DNA of 23,614 nucleotides from Escherichia coli (GCF_003334315.1 NZ_QOWR01000066.1); one strand, 5' to 3'. Numbered from the stretch's first letter, positions 1,586 to 23,614 are shown. The notes: generated by a model not told the origin, from the letters alone. Made by a program: numbers and translations.

Positions 1586-3256
1586 ATGGATAATGCAGAA
1601 CTCGCCATTGGTATCGATCTCGGTACTACCAATAGTTTAATTGCCGTCTGGAAAGACGGTGCCGCGCAATTAATTCCAAATAAGTTCGGTGAATATTTAA
1701 CACCATCCATAATTAGCATGGATGAAAATAATCATATTTTAGTCGGAAAACCGGCTGTATCACGGCGTACTTCGCATCCGGATAAAACGGCAGCGTTATT
1801 TAAACGTGCAATGGGCAGTAATACCAACTGGCGGTTAGGCAGCGACACATTTAACGCGCCAGAACTGTCCTCTTTGGTATTACGCTCATTAAAAGAAGAT
1901 GCCGAAGAATTTCTGCAACGTCCGATTAAAGATGTGGTGATCTCCGTTCCGGCTTATTTCAGCGATGAACAACGCAAGCATACCCGTTTAGCAGCGGAGT
2001 TAGCCGGGTTAAATGCGGTACGCTTAATTAATGAACCCACAGCAGCTGCGATGGCGTATGGCCTGCATACCCAACAAAATACCCGTTCGCTGGTGTTTGA
2101 TCTCGGTGGCGGCACGTTTGACGTTACGGTGCTTGAGTACGCCACGCCGGTGATTGAAGTTCACGCCTCCGCTGGCGACAACTTTCTTGGTGGCGAAGAT
2201 TTTACCCATATGCTGGTCGATGAGGTTTTAAAACGCGCGGATGTCGCCAGGACCACGCTTAACGAGAGTGAACTGGCAGCCTTGTACGCCTGTGTGGAAG
2301 CGGCAAAATGTAGCAATCAATCGCCATTGCACATTCGCTGGCAGTATCAGGAAGAAACGCGGGAATGCGAATTTTACGAGAACGAACTGGAAGATTTGTG
2401 GTTGCCGCTGCTCAATCGCTTGCGAGTGCCGATTGAACAGGCGTTGCGCGATGCGCGTCTGAAGCCGAGTCAAATCGACAGTCTGGTGCTGGTTGGCGGC
2501 GCGTCACAAATGCCGCTGGTGCAGCGAATCGCCGTGCGTCTGTTTGGCAAATTACCGTATCAAAGTTACGATCCGAGCACCATTGTCGCGCTGGGCGCAG
2601 CAATCCAGGCCGCCTGCCGCTTACGCAGTGAAGATATTGAAGAGGTAATCCTCACTGATATTTGCCCTTACTCGTTGGGCGTTGAAGTTAACCGCCAGGG
2701 CGTTTCCGGCATTTTCTCGCCGATTATTGAACGAAACACCACTGTGCCCGTGTCGCGTGTAGAAACTTATTCAACCATGCACCCGGAACAGGATTCAATT
2801 ACGGTTAACGTCTATCAGGGAGAAAACCACAAAGTTAAAAACAACATTCTGGTGGAATCCTTCGATGTGCCGTTGAAGAAAACCGGGGCTTATCAGTCGA
2901 TTGATATTCGCTTTAGTTATGATATCAACGGGTTGCTTGAAGTTGACGTGCTTCTGGAAGACGGCAGCGTTAAGTCCAGAGTGATTAACCACAGCCCGGT
3001 AACATTGAGCGCGCAGCAGATTGAAGAGAGTCGGACGCGGTTATCCGCATTGAAAATTTATCCGCGCGATATGCTCATCAATCGCACCTTTAAAGCCAAA
3101 CTGGAAGAGTTGTGGGCGCGGGCGCTGGGTGACGAGCGAGAAGAGATCGGCCGGGTGATCACCGATTTTGATGCGGCGTTGCAGTCAAACGATATGGCCC
3201 GCGTGGATGAAGTTCGGCGGCGGGCGAGCGATTATTTAGCCATTGAGATCCCATAA
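1586..3256 (+). CDS. hscC: Hsp70-family chaperone HscC (Hsc62)
   Basis: 556-aa ORF with Hsp70 signatures: IGIDLGTTNS near the N-terminus, VFDLGGGTFDVTVL, and LVLVGGASQMP. Length and N-terminus MDNAELAIGIDLGTTNSLIAVW match recalled HscC. Confidence 0.9.
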   Translation: MDNAELAIGIDLGTTNSLIAVWKDGAAQLIPNKFGEYLTPSIISMDENNHILVGKPAVSRRTSHPDKTAALFKRAMGSNTNWRLGSDTFNAPELSSLVLRSLKEDAEEFLQRPIKDVVISVPAYFSDEQRKHTRLAAELAGLNAVRLINEPTAAAMAYGLHTQQNTRSLVFDLGGGTFDVTVLEYATPVIEVHASAGDNFLGGEDFTHMLVDEVLKRADVARTTLNESELAALYACVEAAKCSNQSPLHIRWQYQEETRECEFYENELEDLWLPLLNRLRVPIEQALRDARLKPSQIDSLVLVGGASQMPLVQRIAVRLFGKLPYQSYDPSTIVALGAAIQAACRLRSEDIEEVILTDICPYSLGVEVNRQGVSGIFSPIIERNTTVPVSRVETYSTMHPEQDSITVNVYQGENHKVKNNILVESFDVPLKKTGAYQSIDIRFSYDINGLLEVDVLLEDGSVKSRVINHSPVTLSAQQIEESRTRLSALKIYPRDMLINRTFKAKLEELWARALGDEREEIGRVITDFDAALQSNDMARVDEVRRRASDYLAIEIP

Positions 3257-3263
3257 ACACGGC

Positions 3264-3295
3264 TGCCGGATGCGGCGTAAACGCTGCATCCGGCA
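3264..3295. repeat. REP-like (repetitive extragenic palindromic) element at the convergent hscC/djlC junction; probably also a bidirectional terminator
   Basis: TGCCGGATGCGGCGTAAACGCTGCATCCGGCA is an imperfect palindrome with the GCCGGATGCGGCG motif characteristic of enterobacterial REP sequences. Confidence 0.6.
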
Positions 3296-3315
3296 TCGGC
3301 GCAAAAAACACATCG

Positions 3316-4758
3316 TCAGCTAAACAACATCGCGATTTTGCCGAGAGCATAACCTATCACCAGCACCGTTAAACTGATTTTGATAATGCTGGTAATGCTC
3401 TGTGGTTTTTCACCCTCATCATTTTTTTCTTCATGATTTTCAGGTGTTGGCTCATCGACATCTTCATCCTCCGGCTCGAGTTTCACTTTCGTCAAAAGCA
3501 TCCGGGTGACAATGGCCTCTAATTCTCCGCCTTCCAGCCTTGTATTAAGACGGGCCAGCATCTCTTGTTTCGGAAACGCTTCAAGTACTACCTGTTCCGC
3601 TACCCGATACAAATCCAGGAACGGTGAATCTTGCTCTGTCTCGCTACCGACTCTCGATTTCCACCACGCCCATGCTTTGCGCTTGAAGAATAACGACTCA
3701 ATAAACGATTGACCTAACGGCGATAATTTTCCGCTATGTAAAATCTCCGCCCATAACAGCCGCGTCCGGGCGCTCTCACCAGGAACATATTTCAGCGGTT
3801 GACCTTGCGCATCTACCATGCTCCGCGCTTCGATAACCATCACTAATAACGCGAAATAATCCGGGCAATGACGCTTGCTCCACTGCAACAACAAATTATC
3901 AGCTTGTGTAGATGGGTAACTTTCCCAGTACGCGCAGAGATCGGCAAGCAGGCTTTCCCCCTCGCCGCAGTACAAACGTTGTGCACACAAGTAATACCGG
4001 GCATCTTCGCTTTCTGGTTCTTCCGTTTGCCACTGTTGAGCGACAGGAATGAGTTCCGCCATACCTGTTTGCACCGAGCTGTACCAGCGCAACAGTTTGC
4101 GATGTAACTTTGCATCATCAGGAATTAACCACGGACCTTCCATCGCCAAAAACGCAGTGACATAGTCAGGATGGTAACGGCAGCAACGTTCCAGCGCGAA
4201 GTAATACTCAACAGTCTGGTTCTGCAACGCAATGGGATATTCCAGAAGGCTAAGGAAATCGAAACAATCACCAGCCTGAATGGCCTCAAGAAAAGCCTCC
4301 CTTTCTTCCTCATCCATTCCTTCGCTGTCATTAAATGAATGCCAGTTCAAACGCTCTGCCAGCAAAGAAGCACAATTTAATGAAAGATATCGCGCTTCTA
4401 TGGCGATTGCACACAGCGGCCAGCGTAATTGATCGACATCCTCCATGTTCCAGGTATTTAATTGCTGAATAAATTTCTGCCAGGCGGAAGGCTGAAAACG
4501 ATCACTTTCTGAATCCAGTAATGTCCTGAATGCACGTAGTATTTCATGTTCAGCGGCAGCATCTTTTTCTTCATCATCTGCTTCCTCGACAGGATTTACC
4601 GCCAGTCGCAGGGCCTCTTCATAGGCCTGGCGTAATGCTTTAAACCCTTGCGGATCGGTTTCGGGATGACACAACGGTAAGCGAGCAAGATAAGCCTGGC
4701 GGATAATGTCTATTTGCGTCGTGCTTTCAATTTCGAGGATTTGCCAACATGTTTTCAT
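3316..4758 (-). CDS. djlC: J-domain (DnaJ-like) C-terminally membrane-anchored protein DjlC, putative HscC co-chaperone
   Basis: 480-aa ORF. N-terminus [50 protein letters not shown] aligns to J-domain helices II/III with HPE in place of HPD. C-terminus ...[26 protein letters not shown] is a hydrophobic tail anchor. Its start overlaps the ybeU stop (ATGA). Confidence 0.85.
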
Positions 4759-5462
4759 AGGTCGCTCACATCCTTAAGCGTTACCGGGCATTCAGACTGG
4801 ACAGTTAATGGCTGCCAGGGAAGCGTGGCATAGAAACGATCGCTTCCCGCTGCCAGCTCTTCGAACATACGACTCCCGGCGCTATCGTATTTGTACAGGG
4901 TTAGCGCCTCGCGTAGCGAAGTGTTGTCTTCGCACTGAGAAGATTGCCAGTAGAGACGTCCTAACGAATAGGCGGAAAAATAGTGCATCCAGCTGTGATA
5001 GTAATGGTGAGCTCGTACATAGACGCGCGATTGCAGCCATAAACTCTCTTCTTCCGTCAGCCACTTGTTGAGCACACCGACCCGTGACAGAAACCCCATT
5101 CGAACATAATCCCAGGCTTTGATTCCCCCTTCCCCACAGCACATAGCGGTTTGGGCAACGAATTGGGTATAAATCAACCCTCTCTCCGAGCCACCAGCAA
5201 TTAATGCTTTCCACTCTTCAGGGGAAGAGCGATGCCATGTCAGATATAAGCCAGCTAAATCATTGGCATGACCATCATCAGTCATCTGATAAATAGTCTG
5301 AATTAAATCATCACGATTATTTATTCCCCAGGATGATGAGAGCTCGAATTCTTTTATCCCAGTATACATTTTTGGCGAGTCATGCGCGGGTTTGCAACCC
5401 TGATTAAGTATTTCCATGGGCGCAGAAAGCGCAAAAAGAAGATATTGTTCTTCCTTATTCAT
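4755..5462 (-). CDS. ybeU: DUF1266-like protein YbeU (function unknown), first gene of a ybeU-djlC operon
   Basis: 235-aa ORF, a clear paralog of the ybeR product at 7552..8259 (shared blocks ...[20 protein letters not shown]...). AAGGGA Shine-Dalgarno upstream; stop overlaps the djlC start. Confidence 0.85.
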
Positions 5463-5563
5463 TTGTTAATAATCCCTTAAGTGCATTAACTGACTACTTT
5501 TTTATTATTGATGAGTATAAACTTGACGCTTTCAAAATAAAAAGAAAATCGAAGCATTCACAC

Positions 5564-6118
5564 ATGAATAAAAAATTAATGTATATATTCGCAATTTTTA
5601 TAGTTGCAGCAATTACCTGTATTAGCCAACCCAAGAAAACGACGTTGCGTGATAAAGCCATGGTGAATTATGCCTTTGATTATTTAAGCTCACCGGGCAG
5701 TCTTCCATTCACCACGGCAGCCACGGAGCTTTCCGCGATTCATGGTCACTCAACGTCGCAATATCGCCTTGGAGAATTTTATCTTCATGGTAGCGACGGT
5801 AAACCACTGGATTATACACAGGCGAGATACTGGTATGAGCAATCAGCGGAACAGGAAAATCCACGCGCGCAAAGTAAACTGGGGTGGATCTACCTCAAAG
5901 GTCTGGGGGTCAAACCCGACACCCGTAAAGCAATTCTCTGGTATAAGGAAGCAGCTGAACAAGGGTATGCTCATGCTCAATATACTTTAGGTTTGATCTA
6001 CAGAAATGGCTCAGGTATTAATGTTAACCATTATGAATCTCAAAAATGGTTAAAACTGGCCGCCAAACAACATTACAAAAATGCGGAAAGATTACTTGCC
6101 GGGCTTCCCGCACATTAA
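5564..6118 (+). CDS. ybeT: Sel1-repeat protein YbeT with N-terminal hydrophobic signal/anchor
   Basis: 184-aa ORF. N-terminus [22 protein letters not shown] is hydrophobic. Repeated Sel1-like units are visible ([50 protein letters not shown]...). Transcribed divergently from ybeU. Confidence 0.85.
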
Positions 6119-6127
6119 CGTCGACTG

Positions 6128-7555
6128 TCACCCGAACAGATGGAGTATTTTCCCTATCAAACCAGCAAAGATAAAAATATAGAAAATAATTTTAATGATG
6201 CCCAGACAGCCTGGCCCACCATCGTCAACGGGCATTGGCTGCGGTTGCGGCTCCGGTTCAACAGTTTGCTTCTCGGTAAAATTCGCCGCCTGAATTAATA
6301 ATCGACGAATAATTAATGCTTCCAGTGGACAACGATTTTCTGCATCAAGGCGGCTCACAATCGGCATTAATGATTCTTCTGTAGGTTGGCAGGCCTGCAC
6401 TAATTGTTTGGCAACTAGATATAATGGCCATAAGGTATGTTCTGTATCACGCGTGAGTGAGATCCGCGGCTTACGTCCTTTGTGCAAAACCATCTCGACC
6501 AGTGAACGCCCCAGCGCAGAGAGTTTTTCATCGCTGAGTATTTCGTATAAATGAAAACGCGTACGGGCGCTGTCGCCGGGGACATAAAGTAGCGGTTTTC
6601 CCTGATCGTTAACCAGATCACGCGCTTCAATCATCATCACCAGTAATGGGTAATAATCGACCCGATGCTGACGGCATCATTGCAACATTAAAGCATCCGC
6701 CTGGGTGGAGGGATACTCGCGCCAGTAGTCACAAAGTTCTGCCAACAGGCTTTCGCCTTCTCCACAATAGACGCGTTGCGCGTATTCATAATAAGGCGCA
6801 TCTTCATTATCAGGTTCAGTTTCCCGCCATGACTGGGCGTAATCCAGAAGTTCGGGGATATCCAGGCGACCTGCGCTATACCAGCGGAGTAAATTTCTGT
6901 GCAGTTTTGCATCATCGGGGATAATCACTGCGCGATGTTGCGCTAAATACAATGTCAGCCATTGTGGATGCGATGACCAAATCCGAGCGAACATTTGGTA
7001 AAAATCGATGGTGTCATTTTGCACGGCAACGGGCAGATGCAGAATGGTCTGGAAGTTAAAAACATTCCCCTTCGCAATGGCATATAAAAAGGATTCCAGT
7101 TCTTCTTCGTCTATTTCCCCGGTATTTTCCTCCTGTAACCACCGCAATCTTTCTGCTAATAACACCACGCACTCGAAGGATAAATGGGCAGTGTTCATGG
7201 CGATTGTGCACAGCGACCAGCGTAATTCATCAATCTCCTCCATCGAGCAATAATTTAATTGCTGAATGAATCGCTGCCAGGCGGAGGGCAGAAAACGTTC
7301 ACTATCAGAGGCAAGTAACGCACGAAAGGCGAGCAGAATTTCATGTTCTGCTACCTCATATTCTTCTGGTTGCCAAACAGATTTAGCAGGCGACTGCGCA
7401 ATCCGTAGCGCCTCCTCATACGCCTGACGAAGTTGTTTAAAACCCTGCGGATCGGTTTCTGGATGAAAGGACGGTAACAGCGCCAGATAAGCGCGGCGGA
7501 TAATATCGACGTCAGTCGTTTCCTCTATATCGAGGATCTTCCAGCAATTTTTCAT
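6128..7555 (-). pseudogene. djlB: djlB, J-domain membrane protein paralogous to DjlC, interrupted by a single in-frame TGA
   Basis: ORFs 6677..7555 (292 aa, [39 protein letters not shown]...) and 6128..6640 (170 aa) are in the same frame, separated only by TGA at 6677-6679 (minus strand). Alignment with DjlC (…[27 protein letters not shown]…) against DjlB (…[26 protein letters not shown]…) places the stop where DjlC has Trp (TGG). Confidence 0.8.
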
Positions 7556-8259
7556 AGGTCGCTCATATCCTTAAGCGTTTCCGGGCATGCAGAATAGTAA
7601 GCCAATGGTTGCCAGGACAAGGTAGGGTAATACGCATCATCACTGGCAAATAATTGATAAAACATATCATTGCTGGAATCGTCGTATTCTTTACGCGCTA
7701 AGAATTCGCGTAATAAAGGCAGATGATCATCTTCGGGAGACTGCCAATATTGCCGACCAAAGGTATAACCGGCAAAGTATTGCCGCCAGTTACTATAATA
7801 ACGTAGAGCCCGTAGATGAATGCGCGACTGGATCCATAGACTTTCTTCTTCGCTCAACCAGTTATTAAGTACGCCCATTCGGCTTAAAAAACCCATCCGG
7901 ACATAATCCCAGGCTTTGATTCCCCCTTCGCCACAGCATTCGGCGGTGCTGGCGACAAATTGCGCATAAGCCTGACCTTGCTCATTTAGTTCAGCAAGAT
8001 AGTCACGCCATTCACATGGCGAATAACGAAACCAGCGGTGATAAAACCCTGCCAACCGAGCGGCATGACCGTTATCGATCATTCGGTGAATTGTGCGCAG
8101 CAGGTCATCACGGTCATCAATTCCCCATGAGGAAGAAAGGTCAAAAAAGCATGTACCTAAATACATTTTGGGTGATGAATGCGAAGGTAAACAGCATTCA
8201 TTGCGTATTTCCATCGGAGTGGAAAGTGCAAACAATATTTTTTGCGACTCCATGTCCAT
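7552..8259 (-). CDS. ybeR: DUF1266-like protein YbeR (paralog of YbeU), first gene of a ybeR-djlB operon
   Basis: 235-aa ORF, colinear with YbeU ([23 protein letters not shown]... vs [23 protein letters not shown]...). Its stop overlaps the djlB start (ATGA). Confidence 0.85.
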
Positions 8260-8416
8260 ATAATTTATCCTTAAATATTCATTAAATGAATATTAGCCGC
8301 ATTGCGAGGCTCGTTTATTTATACTTTTCTGACGCGACATAATACGCATAAAATAAGGCTTACGCAAAAATGGAACACATAAAAATATAATATGTTTTAT
8401 CTGCAACCATAAGGAA

Positions 8417-9400
8417 ATGATAATGATTTTCACGTCAAGTTGCTGCGATAATTTATCAATAGATGAGATTATCGAACGTGCTGAAAAAGGCGATTGCGAG
8501 GCTCAATATATTGTTGGGTTTTATTATAATCGCGATAGCGCAATTGATTCTCCGGACGACGAAAAAGCCTTTTACTGGCTGAAGCTGGCCGCTGAGCAAG
8601 GTCATTGTGAAGCACAGTATTCCTTAGGGCAAAAGTATACCGAGGATAAAAGCCGTCATAAAGATAATGAGCAAGCCATCTTCTGGCTGAAAAAAGCTGC
8701 CCTACAAGGCCATACTTTCGCTTCCAACGCCCTTGGCTGGACACTGGATCGTGGAGAAGCCCCCAATTATAAAGAAGCGGTTGTCTGGTATCAGATAGCC
8801 GCGGAGAGCGGAATGTCTTATGCGCAAAATAATCTTGGGTGGATGTACAGAAATGGCAACGGAGTCGCAAAAGACTATGCGCTGGCATTTTTCTGGTACA
8901 AACAAGCTGCATTACAAGGCCATAGTGACGCGCAAAACAATCTGGCCGATCTTTATGAAGACGGAAAAGGCGTTGCTCAAAACAAGACACTCGCCGCATT
9001 CTGGTATTTGAAAAGCGCACAGCAGGGTAATCGGCACGCCCAGTTTCAAATTGCATGGGATTATAACGCTGGCGAAGGGGTGGACCAGGACTATAAGCAA
9101 GCGATGTACTGGTATCTGAAGGCTGCCGCTCAGGGGAGCGTCGGCGCTTACGTCAACATCGGTTATATGTATAAACACGGACAAGGCGTTGAGAAAGATT
9201 ATCAGGCTGCCTTTGAATGGTTTACGAAAGCCGCTGAATGCAATGACGCCACTGCCTGGTATAACCTGGCCATTATGTATCACTACGGAGAAGGAAGACC
9301 TGTCGATCTCCGACAGGCTCTCGACCTGTATCGTAAAGTTCAGTCATCCGGAACCAGAGATGTCAGTCAGGAAATTCGTGAGACTGAAGATTTACTGTAG
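8417..9400 (+). CDS. ybeQ: Sel1-repeat (TPR-like) protein YbeQ
   Basis: 327-aa ORF with at least seven tandem ~36-aa Sel1-like units of pattern AQxxLGxxYxxGxGVxxDxxxAxxWYxKAAxQG. Transcribed divergently from ybeR. The exact start is uncertain (ATG at 8417 or 8423). Confidence 0.8.
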   Translation: MIMIFTSSCCDNLSIDEIIERAEKGDCEAQYIVGFYYNRDSAIDSPDDEKAFYWLKLAAEQGHCEAQYSLGQKYTEDKSRHKDNEQAIFWLKKAALQGHTFASNALGWTLDRGEAPNYKEAVVWYQIAAESGMSYAQNNLGWMYRNGNGVAKDYALAFFWYKQAALQGHSDAQNNLADLYEDGKGVAQNKTLAAFWYLKSAQQGNRHAQFQIAWDYNAGEGVDQDYKQAMYWYLKAAAQGSVGAYVNIGYMYKHGQGVEKDYQAAFEWFTKAAECNDATAWYNLAIMYHYGEGRPVDLRQALDLYRKVQSSGTRDVSQEIRETEDLL

Positions 9401-9410
9401 AGATAAAAAC

Positions 9411-9438
9411 AAGGGCCGGGGAATTTCATTCGGCCCAT
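9411..9438. terminator. Hairpin between convergent ybeQ and ybeL; possible bidirectional terminator
   Basis: AAGGGCCGGGGAATTTCATTCGGCCC has a GGGCCG/CGGCCC stem with flanking A/T runs. Confidence 0.4.
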
Positions 9439-9469
9439 ATTCTCTTTATTGCTGTGCGAAATCAGACTA

Positions 9470-9952
9470 TTACGGCTCAAACGGGCGTCTCTGGAACTGG
9501 TCATGACCACATTTCGGGCATAGCGTCAGCACTTCCGGTGTGTAGATCGGGAGATGGAAGTGACATTTCTCGCAGACCAGATTTCCCAGCCCGACCACTT
9601 CTCCGCTGTGATAAACCCCATGATGATTGAGGTCCTGGAAAACTTCGCGCCATTCAAGCTGCGTTTTATCGGTGATGTCTGCCAGCTCCTGCCACAAGCT
9701 TTCTTTAATCACCCGCATAAAGACGCTGTCAGATTCTTCTTTCAGGCTCTCTTCATAGCTCATGGCGAACTCTTCCAGGTCACGTCTGACAGCTCGCGTC
9801 AGCTCATCGACCTCGGTTCGCGTTAACTCCCCTGTTTTTATTACGCGCTCGCGCGCCTGTTCCACCAGTGCGTCGATATCACGTTCGCCATTGCGCAGGC
9901 GTTCGCTCAGTGACGCAACCAGTTCACGGTAATATTGAGCAACCTTGTTCAT
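9470..9952 (-). CDS. ybeL: DUF1451-family protein YbeL with C-terminal zinc-ribbon
   Basis: 160-aa ORF MNKVAQYYRELVASLSERL... with a C-terminal CEKC...CPKC pair. Matches recalled YbeL. Confidence 0.85.
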   Translation of the reverse strand: MNKVAQYYRELVASLSERLRNGERDIDALVEQARERVIKTGELTRTEVDELTRAVRRDLEEFAMSYEESLKEESDSVFMRVIKESLWQELADITDKTQLEWREVFQDLNHHGVYHSGEVVGLGNLVCEKCHFHLPIYTPEVLTLCPKCGHDQFQRRPFEP

Positions 9953-10186
9953 CGTTTCATCTCCCGGGTCGTTAACTGACTATAATAATAGACGTTCTTT
10001 GTTCCTTGCTTTGCTAATACGCCCACAAACTCTGTAAATTAATGTATGAATAATCCGGGCATCATTTCAACGTCGAGTGCGCGAAAGGCTGTTTTGACGC
10101 GGACGTTTGGGCTATGCTATGCGGATCTGAAAAACCACCTCAACGCTACATTTGTAGCCGTATTGAAAACAGGACCACTGGCTGCC

Positions 10187-12769
10187 ATGCAAGAGCAATA
10201 CCGCCCGGAAGAGATAGAATCCAAAGTACAGCTTCATTGGGATGAGAAGCGCACATTTGAAGTAACCGAAGACGAGAGCAAAGAGAAGTATTACTGCCTG
10301 TCTATGCTTCCCTATCCTTCTGGTCGACTACACATGGGCCACGTACGTAACTACACCATCGGTGACGTGATCGCCCGCTACCAGCGTATGCTGGGCAAAA
10401 ACGTCCTGCAGCCGATCGGCTGGGACGCGTTTGGTCTGCCTGCGGAAGGCGCGGCGGTGAAAAACAACACCGCTCCGGCACCGTGGACGTACGACAACAT
10501 CGCGTATATGAAAAACCAGCTCAAAATGCTGGGCTTTGGTTATGACTGGAGCCGCGAGCTGGCAACCTGTACGCCGGAATACTACCGTTGGGAACAGAAA
10601 TTCTTCACCGAGCTGTATAAAAAAGGCCTGGTATATAAGAAGACTTCTGCGGTCAACTGGTGCCCGAACGACCAGACCGTACTGGCGAACGAACAAGTTA
10701 TCGACGGCTGCTGCTGGCGCTGCGATACCAAAGTTGAACGTAAAGAGATCCCGCAGTGGTTTATCAAAATCACTGCTTACGCTGACGAGCTGCTCAACGA
10801 TCTGGATAAACTGGATCACTGGCCAGACACCGTTAAAACCATGCAGCGTAACTGGATCGGTCGTTCCGAAGGCGTGGAGATCACCTTCAACGTTAACGAC
10901 TATGACAACACGCTGACCGTTTACACTACCCGCCCGGACACCTTTATGGGTTGTACCTACCTGGCGGTAGCTGCGGGTCATCCGCTGGCGCAGAAAGCGG
11001 CGGAAAATAATCCTGAACTGGCGGCCTTTATTGACGAATGCCGTAACACCAAAGTTGCCGAAGCTGAAATGGCGACGATGGAGAAAAAAGGCGTCGATAC
11101 TGGCTTTAAAGCTGTTCACCCATTAACGGGCGAAGAAATTCCCGTTTGGGCAGCAAACTTCGTATTGATGGAGTACGGCACGGGCGCAGTTATGGCGGTT
11201 CCGGGTCACGACCAGCGCGACTACGAGTTTGCCTCTAAATACGGCCTGAACATCAAACCGGTTATCCTGGCAGCTGACGGCTCTGAGCCAGATCTTTCTC
11301 AGCAAGCCCTGACTGAAAAAGGCGTGCTGTTCAACTCTGGCGAGTTCAACGGTCTTGACCATGAAGCGGCCTTCAACGCCATCGCCGATAAACTGACTGC
11401 GATGGGCGTTGGCGAGCGTAAAGTGAACTACCGCCTGCGCGACTGGGGTGTTTCTCGTCAGCGTTACTGGGGCGCGCCGATTCCGATGGTGACGCTGGAA
11501 GACGGTACCGTAATGCCGACCCCGGACGACCAGCTGCCGGTGATCCTGCCGGAAGATGTGGTGATGGACGGCATTAACAGCCCGATTAAAGCAGATCCGG
11601 AGTGGGCAAAAACTACCGTTAACGGTATGCCAGCGCTGCGTGAAACCGACACTTTCGACACCTTTATGGAGTCCTCCTGGTACTATGCGCGCTACACTTG
11701 CCCAGAGTACAAAGAAGGTATGCTGGATTCCGAAGCGGCTAACTACTGGCTGCCGGTGGATATCTACATTGGTGGTATTGAACACGCCATTATGCACCTG
11801 CTCTACTTCCGCTTCTTCCACAAACTGATGCGTGATGCAGGCATGGTGAACTCTGACGAACCAGCGAAACAGTTGCTGTGTCAGGGTATGGTGCTGGCAG
11901 ATGCCTTCTACTATGTTGGCGAAAACGGCGAACGTAACTGGGTTTCCCCGGTTGATGCTATCGTTGAACGTGACGAGAAAGGCCGTATCGTGAAAGCGAA
12001 AGATGCGGCAGGCCATGAACTGGTTTATACCGGCATGAGCAAAATGTCCAAGTCGAAGAACAACGGTATCGACCCGCAGGTGATGGTTGAACGTTACGGC
12101 GCGGACACCGTTCGTCTGTTTATGATGTTTGCTTCTCCGGCTGATATGACTCTCGAATGGCAGGAATCCGGTGTGGAAGGGGCTAACCGCTTCCTGAAAC
12201 GTGTCTGGAAACTGGTTTACGAGCACACAGCAAAAGGTGATGTTGCGGCACTGAACGTTGATGCGCTGACTGAAGATCAGAAAGCGCTGCGTCGCGATGT
12301 GCATAAAACTATCGCTAAAGTGACCGATGATATCGGCCGTCGTCAGACCTTCAACACCGCAATTGCGGCGATTATGGAGCTGATGAACAAACTGGCGAAA
12401 GCACCAACCGATGGCGAGCAGGATCGCGCTCTGATGCAGGAAGCGCTGCTGGCCGTTGTCCGTATGCTTAACCCGTTCACCCCGCACATCTGCTTCACGC
12501 TGTGGCAGGAACTGAAAGGCGAAGGCGATATCGACAACGCGCCGTGGCCGGTTGCTGACGAAAAAGCGATGGTGGAAGACTCCACGCTGGTCGTGGTGCA
12601 GGTTAACGGTAAAGTCCGTGCCAAAATCACCGTTCCGGTGGACGCAACGGAAGAACAGGTTCGCGAACGTGCTGGCCAGGAACATCTGGTAGCAAAATAT
12701 CTTGATGGCGTTACTGTACGTAAAGTGATTTACGTACCAGGTAAACTCCTCAATCTGGTCGTTGGCTAA
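10187..12769 (+). CDS. leuS: Leucyl-tRNA synthetase
   Basis: Contains the class I aaRS HIGH motif ([15 protein letters not shown]) and KMSKS ([12 protein letters not shown]). Starting at ATG 10187 ([15 protein letters not shown]...) gives 860 aa, the canonical LeuS length. The ORF track's 10046 start is an in-frame upstream extension. Confidence 0.95.
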
Positions 12770-23410: not shown

Positions 23411-23614
23411 GGTGATGCTGCCAACTTACTGATTTAGTGTATGATGGTGTTTTTGAGGTGCTCCAGTGGCTTCTGTTTCTATCAGCTGTCCCTCCTGTTC
23501 AGCTACTGACGGGGTGGTGCGTAACGGCAAAAGCACCGCCGGACATCAGCGCTATCTCTGCTCTCACTGCCGTAAAACATGGCAACTGCAGTTCACTTAC
23601 ACCGCTTCTCAACC
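23411..23614 (+). mobile_element. IS1 insertion sequence, left inverted repeat and 5' portion; continues past the window end
   Basis: GGTGATGCTGCCAACTTACTGATTTAGTGTATGATGGTGTTTTTGAGGTGCTCCAGTG... is the canonical IS1 terminal inverted repeat and leader. Confidence 0.9.
23466..23614 (+). CDS. insA: IS1 InsA (transposition repressor / transposase N-terminal part), partial
   Basis: From GTG at 23466 the frame encodes [48 protein letters not shown], the InsA zinc-finger N-terminus. Confidence 0.85.

Follow-up and report, generated by a model that had tools for sequence, protein, structure and literature searches.

The J-domain proteins DjlC and DjlB of Escherichia coli carry genuine but short J-domains in which His-Pro-Glu (HPE) stands at the position of the canonical His-Pro-Asp (HPD) triad, and an alignment of their relatives shows that the glutamate is a trait of the DjlB/C-type family, conserved well beyond these two proteins. 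The aspartate of HPD is the switch residue by which J-proteins fire ATP hydrolysis by Hsp70, and a natural, conserved glutamate at its position is a probe of the geometric tolerance of that switch. We consider it highly probable that DjlC and DjlB are membrane-anchored class C co-chaperones of HscC in which an ancestral glutamate, held under purifying selection, acts as Asp35 does in DnaJ. The features under discussion are collected in Table 1, where positions refer to the window, that is, the whole stretch of 23,614 nucleotides of E. coli DNA that was analyzed.

That DjlB and DjlC of E. coli carry HPE has already been published, in PNAS in 2023 (PMC10410713) and in Cell Stress Chaperones in 2026 (PMC13254874), and the observation as such is correct and ordinary. 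The survey in the former paper put the number of HPE J-domains at 2,921, roughly 1% of all J-domains, and named DjlB and DjlC among them; the latter paper treats HPE proteins as functional J-domain proteins. What is added here to the published work is that, among the best 150 of 1605 family matches, HPD is lacking family-wide and the glutamate is effectively invariant; that the linkage to HscC-type Hsp70s is consistent; that the Hsp70 residues contacting the aspartate are unchanged; and that triads lacking the histidine (NPE, RPD and KPE) also occur beside HscC-type Hsp70s.

Table 1. Features of the hscC-djlC-djlB region, with positions in the window and the basis of each assignment
Feature	Position	Strand	Basis
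hscC, specialized Hsp70 partner, 556 aa	1586..3256	+	identical to K-12 HscC; RefSeq annotation
djlC CDS, 480 aa, with hydrophobic C-terminal tail anchor	3316..4758	-	ORF list; RefSeq 'co-chaperone DjlC'; hydrophobic C-terminus seen in alignment
DjlC J-domain, aa 1-55	4594..4758	-	AlphaFold2; Foldseek; Pfam DnaJ
DjlC His31-Pro32-Glu33 (CAT CCC GAA), at canonical HPD position	4660..4668	-	direct reading; register from Pfam, MAFFT and family profile against PDB
ybeU (DUF1266), stop overlaps djlC start by 4 nt (ATGA)	4755..5462	-	ORF coordinates; annotation
djlB pseudogene, TGA at codon 293 (6677-6679)	6128..7555	-	same-frame ORFs 6677-7555 and 6128-6640; RefSeq 'internal stop'
DjlB J-domain, aa 1-55	7391..7555	-	Pfam DnaJ aa 4-47; alignment with DjlC and family
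DjlB His31-Pro32-Glu33 (CAT CCA GAA)	7457..7465	-	direct reading; register from Pfam (E = 8.3e-4) and MAFFT
ybeR (DUF1266), stop overlaps djlB start by 4 nt (ATGA)	7552..8259	-	ORF coordinates; annotation

The HPE triads and the J-domain fold

Translation of positions 4650-4758 and 7450-7555 on the minus strand gives HPE instead of HPD in both DjlC and DjlB, as the first-pass annotation had read it. The 12-residue strings quoted there for the two proteins are found in the full open reading frames, with their end residues (QG in DjlC, PQG in DjlB) lying just beyond these ranges. The codons of the DjlC triad are 4666-4668 (CAT) for H31, 4663-4665 (CCC) for P32 and 4660-4662 (GAA) for E33, and those of the DjlB triad are 7463-7465 for H31, 7460-7462 for P32 and 7457-7459 (GAA) for E33. 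Thus, where a J-domain is expected to have an invariant His-Pro-Asp, both proteins have His-Pro-Glu.

The register of this comparison, which had been set by eye, proved right by four independent approaches. The Pfam DnaJ model (PF00226) aligns with residues 4-47 of both proteins at model positions 2-51, with no shift near the triad; DjlB scores E = 8.3e-4, and DjlC a weak 0.036 at full length and 7.7e-4 when cut to residues 1-66. When all six J-domains of E. coli (DnaJ, CbpA, DjlA, HscB, DjlC and DjlB) are aligned with MAFFT, HPE is stacked under HPD. We also aligned 66 N-termini from DjlB/C-type proteins, each of which the Pfam DnaJ model matches at E <= 1e-3 (best 1.6e-10). Used as a profile against the PDB, this alignment matched 43 chains, each bearing the name of a J-domain (DnaJ-type) protein; the best E-value was 1.1e-8, and 5nro_B, the E. 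coli DnaJ chain of a complex with DnaK, scored 1.3e-7; 'hPE' pairs with 'HPD' in all four of the alignments printed. A single-sequence phmmer search of the PDB with DjlC residues 1-84 gave one weak match, 2lgw (E = 1.2), and no NCBIfam model matched DjlC or DjlB.

The predicted structure places the triad in the same way. When residues 1-66 of DjlC are modeled with AlphaFold2 (mean pLDDT 82.7), helix I spans residues 4-8, helix II residues 16-26 and helix III residues 36-54, and HPE sits in the helix II-III loop, residues 27-35. The best PDB matches of this model in Foldseek are J-domains, for example 5nro_B with an rmsd of 2.1 Å over 56 columns; their probabilities are 0.9-1.0, with E-values of just 0.1-1 for so small a domain.

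An HPD tripeptide does occur in DjlC, at residues 196-198, and could be taken for the true triad if the alignment by eye were out of register, the refuting case that the first-pass annotation had named. We regard this as next to impossible. That tripeptide lies outside the J-domain, approximately 140 residues past it, and is conserved neither in DjlB, where its counterpart is HPQ, nor in 18 homologs, in which YPE, RPD, RPL, QLS and others are found, while four independent methods set residues 31-33 opposite HPD. The HPD at 196-198 is therefore ruled out as the triad and appears to be a chance occurrence.

E. coli DnaJ (PF00226; 1XBL and 5NRO chain B) shares with DjlC the helix I-II-III topology and a triad in the II-III loop. 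Also common to the two are R22 of DnaJ (R20 in DjlC), an A-Y pair, the His-Pro of the triad, the helix III Phe, and K48 and K51 of DnaJ (K40 and R43 in DjlC). The two differ in that DjlC has Glu for Asp35, six fewer residues from the His to the helix III Phe (three fewer than DNAJA1), a Leu-Pro three residues before the His, and a helix II from which most basic residues are gone. Furthermore, no helix IV or KRxxYD segment like that of DnaJ is seen in DjlC. Helix IV may be missing from DjlC, since the Pfam alignment, for DjlC as for DjlB, ends at model position 51 of 63. It is absent from the 66-residue model, whose terminal residues have low confidence, and the sequence that follows helix III is acidic and not conserved in the DjlB/C-type alignment.

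Triads across the family and the neighboring Hsp70s

A HMMER scan with DjlC over 1.84 billion cluster representatives returned 1605 matches at E <= 1e-3. Among the best 150 of these, 102 have the N-terminal domain; they reduce to 94 distinct segments, which together with the two proteins of the window make a survey set of 96. The sequences represent clusters at 50% identity, and only those with a DP.G[FY] signature downstream were selected, so that the set is biased toward the core family. The triad is HPE in 84 of the 96 distinct N-termini, NPE in 7, RPD in 3, KPE in 1 and PPE in 1. HPD was found in none of the 96, a count that covers the best 150 of the 1605 matches and leaves more distant members that could carry HPD. 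The surveyed proteins are often approximately 900-1200 aa long and merely about 30% identical to DjlC; in the distant relatives of this length, the J-protein itself contains fused TPR repeats.

Across the DjlB/C-type alignment, the triad and the signature that flanks it are almost invariant, and the Leu-Pro pair directly before the triad is conserved. Since a single substitution would turn GAA into GAT or GAC, the absence of HPD from the best 150 of 1605 matches points to selection for Glu. In the same set, Asp at the third position of the triad is always accompanied by Arg at the first (RPD, 3 of 3). This co-occurrence suggests that residues within the triad may be coupled. Within E. coli, DjlB and DjlC are paralogs that share the glutamate through descent, so that it counts as a single event and not as two independent observations.

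In the literature, HscC and DjlC make up one of three standard subclasses of Hsp70/J pairs in E. coli. Only DjlC is reported to stimulate HscC, with DnaJ, CbpA and HscB having no effect (PMC8215388), and the J-domain of DjlC is described in PMC1906734, which cites Kluck 2002, as unable to replace that of DnaJ. To see this pairing outside E. coli, we inspected the contigs of eight distant family members, one of which (P0139, NPE) is too short to show neighbors. In all seven informative loci, three with HPE, one with NPE, two with RPD and one with KPE, the J-gene lies directly beside a gene for an Hsp70 of 559-567 aa. Their identity is 42-59% with HscC and 33-38% with DnaK. In common with HscC, they are short Hsp70s (about 556-567 aa) that resemble HscC more than DnaK or HscA, have no counterpart of the DnaK 208-211 loop and carry other residues at D477 and D481, and we refer to them as HscC-type.

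The J-genes with triads that lack the His are found at 2303-5788 in locus L009 (NPE), 5639-6925 in L012 (RPD), 6001-7365 in L016 (RPD; GCA_900101385.1) and 6001-7560 in L018 (KPE). Each adjoins a gene for an HscC-type Hsp70 of 563-566 aa that keeps the equivalents of R167, Q378 and P419 of DnaK. Mutants of canonical J-domains in which the His is changed to Gln are inactive, so the NPE, RPD and KPE variants are either inactive or under altered rules. Because such relatives still adjoin an HscC-type Hsp70, their existence shows that constraint on the triad is looser in this lineage than would follow from a simple model in which Glu replaces Asp.

On the Hsp70 side of the canonical interface, the L391 backbone of DnaK is bonded by His33 of DnaJ, P419 is the residue on which Pro34 packs, and R167 and Q378 are both bonded by Asp35 (PMC8215388). 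E. coli HscC keeps all four of these contacts, as L356, P388, R146 and Q341, respectively. Among eight HscC-type sequences (E. coli HscC and the seven neighbors), the equivalents of R167, Q378 and P419 never vary, and that of L391 is kept in seven, with Val in one neighbor. These eight sequences thus rule out that HscC compensates at the residues contacted by Asp35, and given that the residues that bind Asp35 are kept, a swap of partner residues does not explain the change from Asp to Glu.

Differences from DnaK are found elsewhere on the Hsp70. E. coli HscC lacks residues 208-211 of DnaK and has Ser in place of D477 and Asn in place of D481; the seven neighboring Hsp70s likewise lack 208-211 (including D211) and have Ser or Thr for D477 and Asn or Ser for D481. 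Judged from these alignments, HscC-type proteins lack some of the acidic surface by which the basic face of the J-domain is steered, and helix II of DjlC shows a mirroring loss of basic residues.

Explanations for the glutamate

In the explanation that we favor, the glutamate would have been fixed in a common ancestor of the DjlB/C-type proteins and kept by purifying selection wherever the J-protein is paired with an HscC-type Hsp70. By analogy with the DnaJ-DnaK complex (5NRO), its carboxylate would hydrogen-bond to Arg146 and Gln341 of HscC, as that of Asp35 does to R167 and Q378 of DnaK, and so trigger ATP hydrolysis. The extra methylene of Glu may be matched to a changed docking geometry, possible signs of which are a stretch from the triad to the helix III Phe that is 3-6 residues shorter, the smaller number of basic residues on helix II, and an HscC without the acidic D211, D477 and D481 of DnaK.

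The first-pass annotation had gone on to suggest that the change from Asp to Glu reflects an atypical or specialized coupling to HscC. A specialized coupling is real, as both the seven loci and the literature attest. The step that makes Glu the cause of the specificity is unsupported: the residues that the triad contacts, R167, Q378 and P419 and in most cases L391, are kept in HscC-type Hsp70s. Specificity could be explained equally well by the basic residues of helix II, by the shorter segment after the triad, or by the acidic residues lost from HscC. The other specialized pair of E. coli, HscB-HscA, likewise sets a dedicated J-protein beside a dedicated, shortened Hsp70, and HscA, too, is without the DnaK 208-211 loop. 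Unlike DjlC and DjlB, however, HscB keeps a canonical HPD (residues 32-34), and a specialized pairing alone therefore requires no change of the triad. Other J-domains with HPE, about 1% of the total and including eukaryotic ones linked to a Na/Ca exchanger (PMC10410713), have the same substitution and differ from DjlB and DjlC in having unrelated architectures and different Hsp70 partners. Our literature searches found no mutants of the DjlC triad, and a search for D35E of DnaJ gave only irrelevant papers.

To the main rival we give a real but minority chance. It holds that the change from Asp to Glu was a conservative founder substitution without a role in specificity, and that specificity for HscC resides elsewhere in the interface. 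Nothing on the Hsp70 side, with R167, Q378 and P419 kept in 8 of 8 sequences and L391 in 7 of 8, obviously demands a longer side chain. An alternative seat of specificity is at hand in helix II, where K23, K26, R27 and K31 of DnaJ align with Q21, L24, A25 and L29 of DjlC, and in HscC itself, which is without DnaK 208-211 and carries D477S and D481N. HPE is, according to the 2026 review (PMC13254874), the only tolerated replacement of HPD, and the paralogy of DjlB and DjlC makes their shared Glu a single event. A neutral founder substitution nevertheless sits poorly with the survey: none of the 84 triads of the form H-P-x among the best 150 of 1605 matches is HPD, despite a distance of one nucleotide and a divergence to approximately 30% identity, and in all three cases of a third-position Asp the His has given way to Arg (RPD), which suggests coupling within the triad. 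The same absence of HPD from the 84, taken with the loss of the His in NPE, RPD and KPE proteins that are nonetheless linked to the Hsp70 gene in an operon, leads to a further reading that we think unlikely, namely that HscC-type Hsp70s read the triad by rules different from those of DnaK, such that Glu would be required and not merely tolerated. If this were true, HscC-type proteins, which in these loci still have the Arg, Gln and Pro contacts, would form an Hsp70 subfamily whose activation switch is rewired, and the choice of Asp or Glu and the necessity of the His would be testable by a simple ATPase assay.

A further view, that DjlC and DjlB have degenerate, non-functional J-like domains, sometimes called type IV J-proteins, that activate no Hsp70, is in our judgment very improbable. 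The canonical Asp is missing and helix IV was not detected in these domains, DjlB and DjlC are under the detection limit of proteomics (PMC8215388), and djlB has a premature stop in this strain. Against this, DjlC is reported to stimulate the ATPase of HscC (Kluck et al. 2002, as cited in PMC8215388), the triad and its flanks are near-invariant, and the linkage to an Hsp70 holds in 7 of 7 loci. Purifying selection on an ancestral glutamate that does the work of Asp35 remains the account that we prefer.

The locus and the djlB pseudogene

An 8-kb query around djlC and djlB is 100% identical to several complete E. coli genomes annotated with hscC, djlC and djlB, which bears out the gene names assigned from the sequence at the outset. 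The order of genes at this locus of the E. coli chromosome is rihA-hscC-djlC-ybeU-ybeT-djlB-ybeR-ybeQ, and the RefSeq annotation across the matching record runs gltL, rihA, hscC, djlC, ybeU, ybeT, djlB, ybeR, ybeQ, ybeL, leuS and onwards. The hscC gene adjoins djlC, at 60 nt from the djlC stop. DjlC (YbeV, b0649) and DjlB (YbeS, b0646) of K-12 are the same genes at the same locus with an identical HPE, and the N-terminal 60 residues of both proteins, HPE included, show no difference from K-12. The only departure of DjlC from its K-12 counterpart is a 3-aa deletion with one substitution at residues 412-415, four alignment columns in all. At about 3520-3530 of the window, D-A-H is missing and Pro is changed to Glu relative to K-12, within 'NTRLEGG(DAHP/E)LEAI', a segment flanked by the conserved region on one side and, on the other, by the acidic linker that precedes the tail anchor. 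The C-terminus of DjlC is a single hydrophobic segment, as expected of a tail anchor, and membrane insertion of the DjlC and DjlB tail anchor is reported in PMC8215388.

In contrast to K-12, djlB is a pseudogene here. The replacement of W293 by a stop is the sole difference from K-12 DjlB; the resulting open reading frame of 292 aa retains the J-domain, and the C-terminal membrane anchor, downstream of the stop, is lost. The statement that both J-domains read HPE is thus true of the DNA, with the qualification that the J-domain of DjlB heads a truncated reading frame. The product, if made, would be a 292-aa fragment without a membrane anchor. Given that djlB is a pseudogene, its J-domain may not be under selection in this strain. 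The nonsense mutation is a minority lineage allele: of the 3388 E. coli genomes with a match at the site, 50, or about 1.5%, contain a 57-mer identical to the mutated sequence.

The 4-nt ATGA overlaps of ybeU with djlC (4755-4758) and of ybeR with djlB (7552-7555) suggest translational coupling of the DUF1266 genes with the two J-protein genes. A DUF1266 gene also overlaps the J-gene in three of the distant loci: L007, at 7306-8004 and 8001-10688 for the DUF1266 gene and the J-gene, respectively; L013, at 5979-6680 and 6677-9376; and L016, where the pair stands in reversed order at 6001-7365 and 7362-8069. Among the papers searched, none mentions DUF1266 together with J-domains. The locus has the appearance of a three-gene unit duplicated in tandem, in which the Sel1/TPR repeat gene lies on the strand opposite to the DUF1266 gene and the J-protein gene. 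The two halves comprise 4755-5462 with 3316-4758 and 7552-8259 with 6128-7555, each accompanied by a Sel1/TPR repeat gene; ybeT lies at 5564-6118 and ybeQ at 8417-9400. At the far end of the window, after lipB, a gene for an IS1A-family transposase begins (23466-23614).
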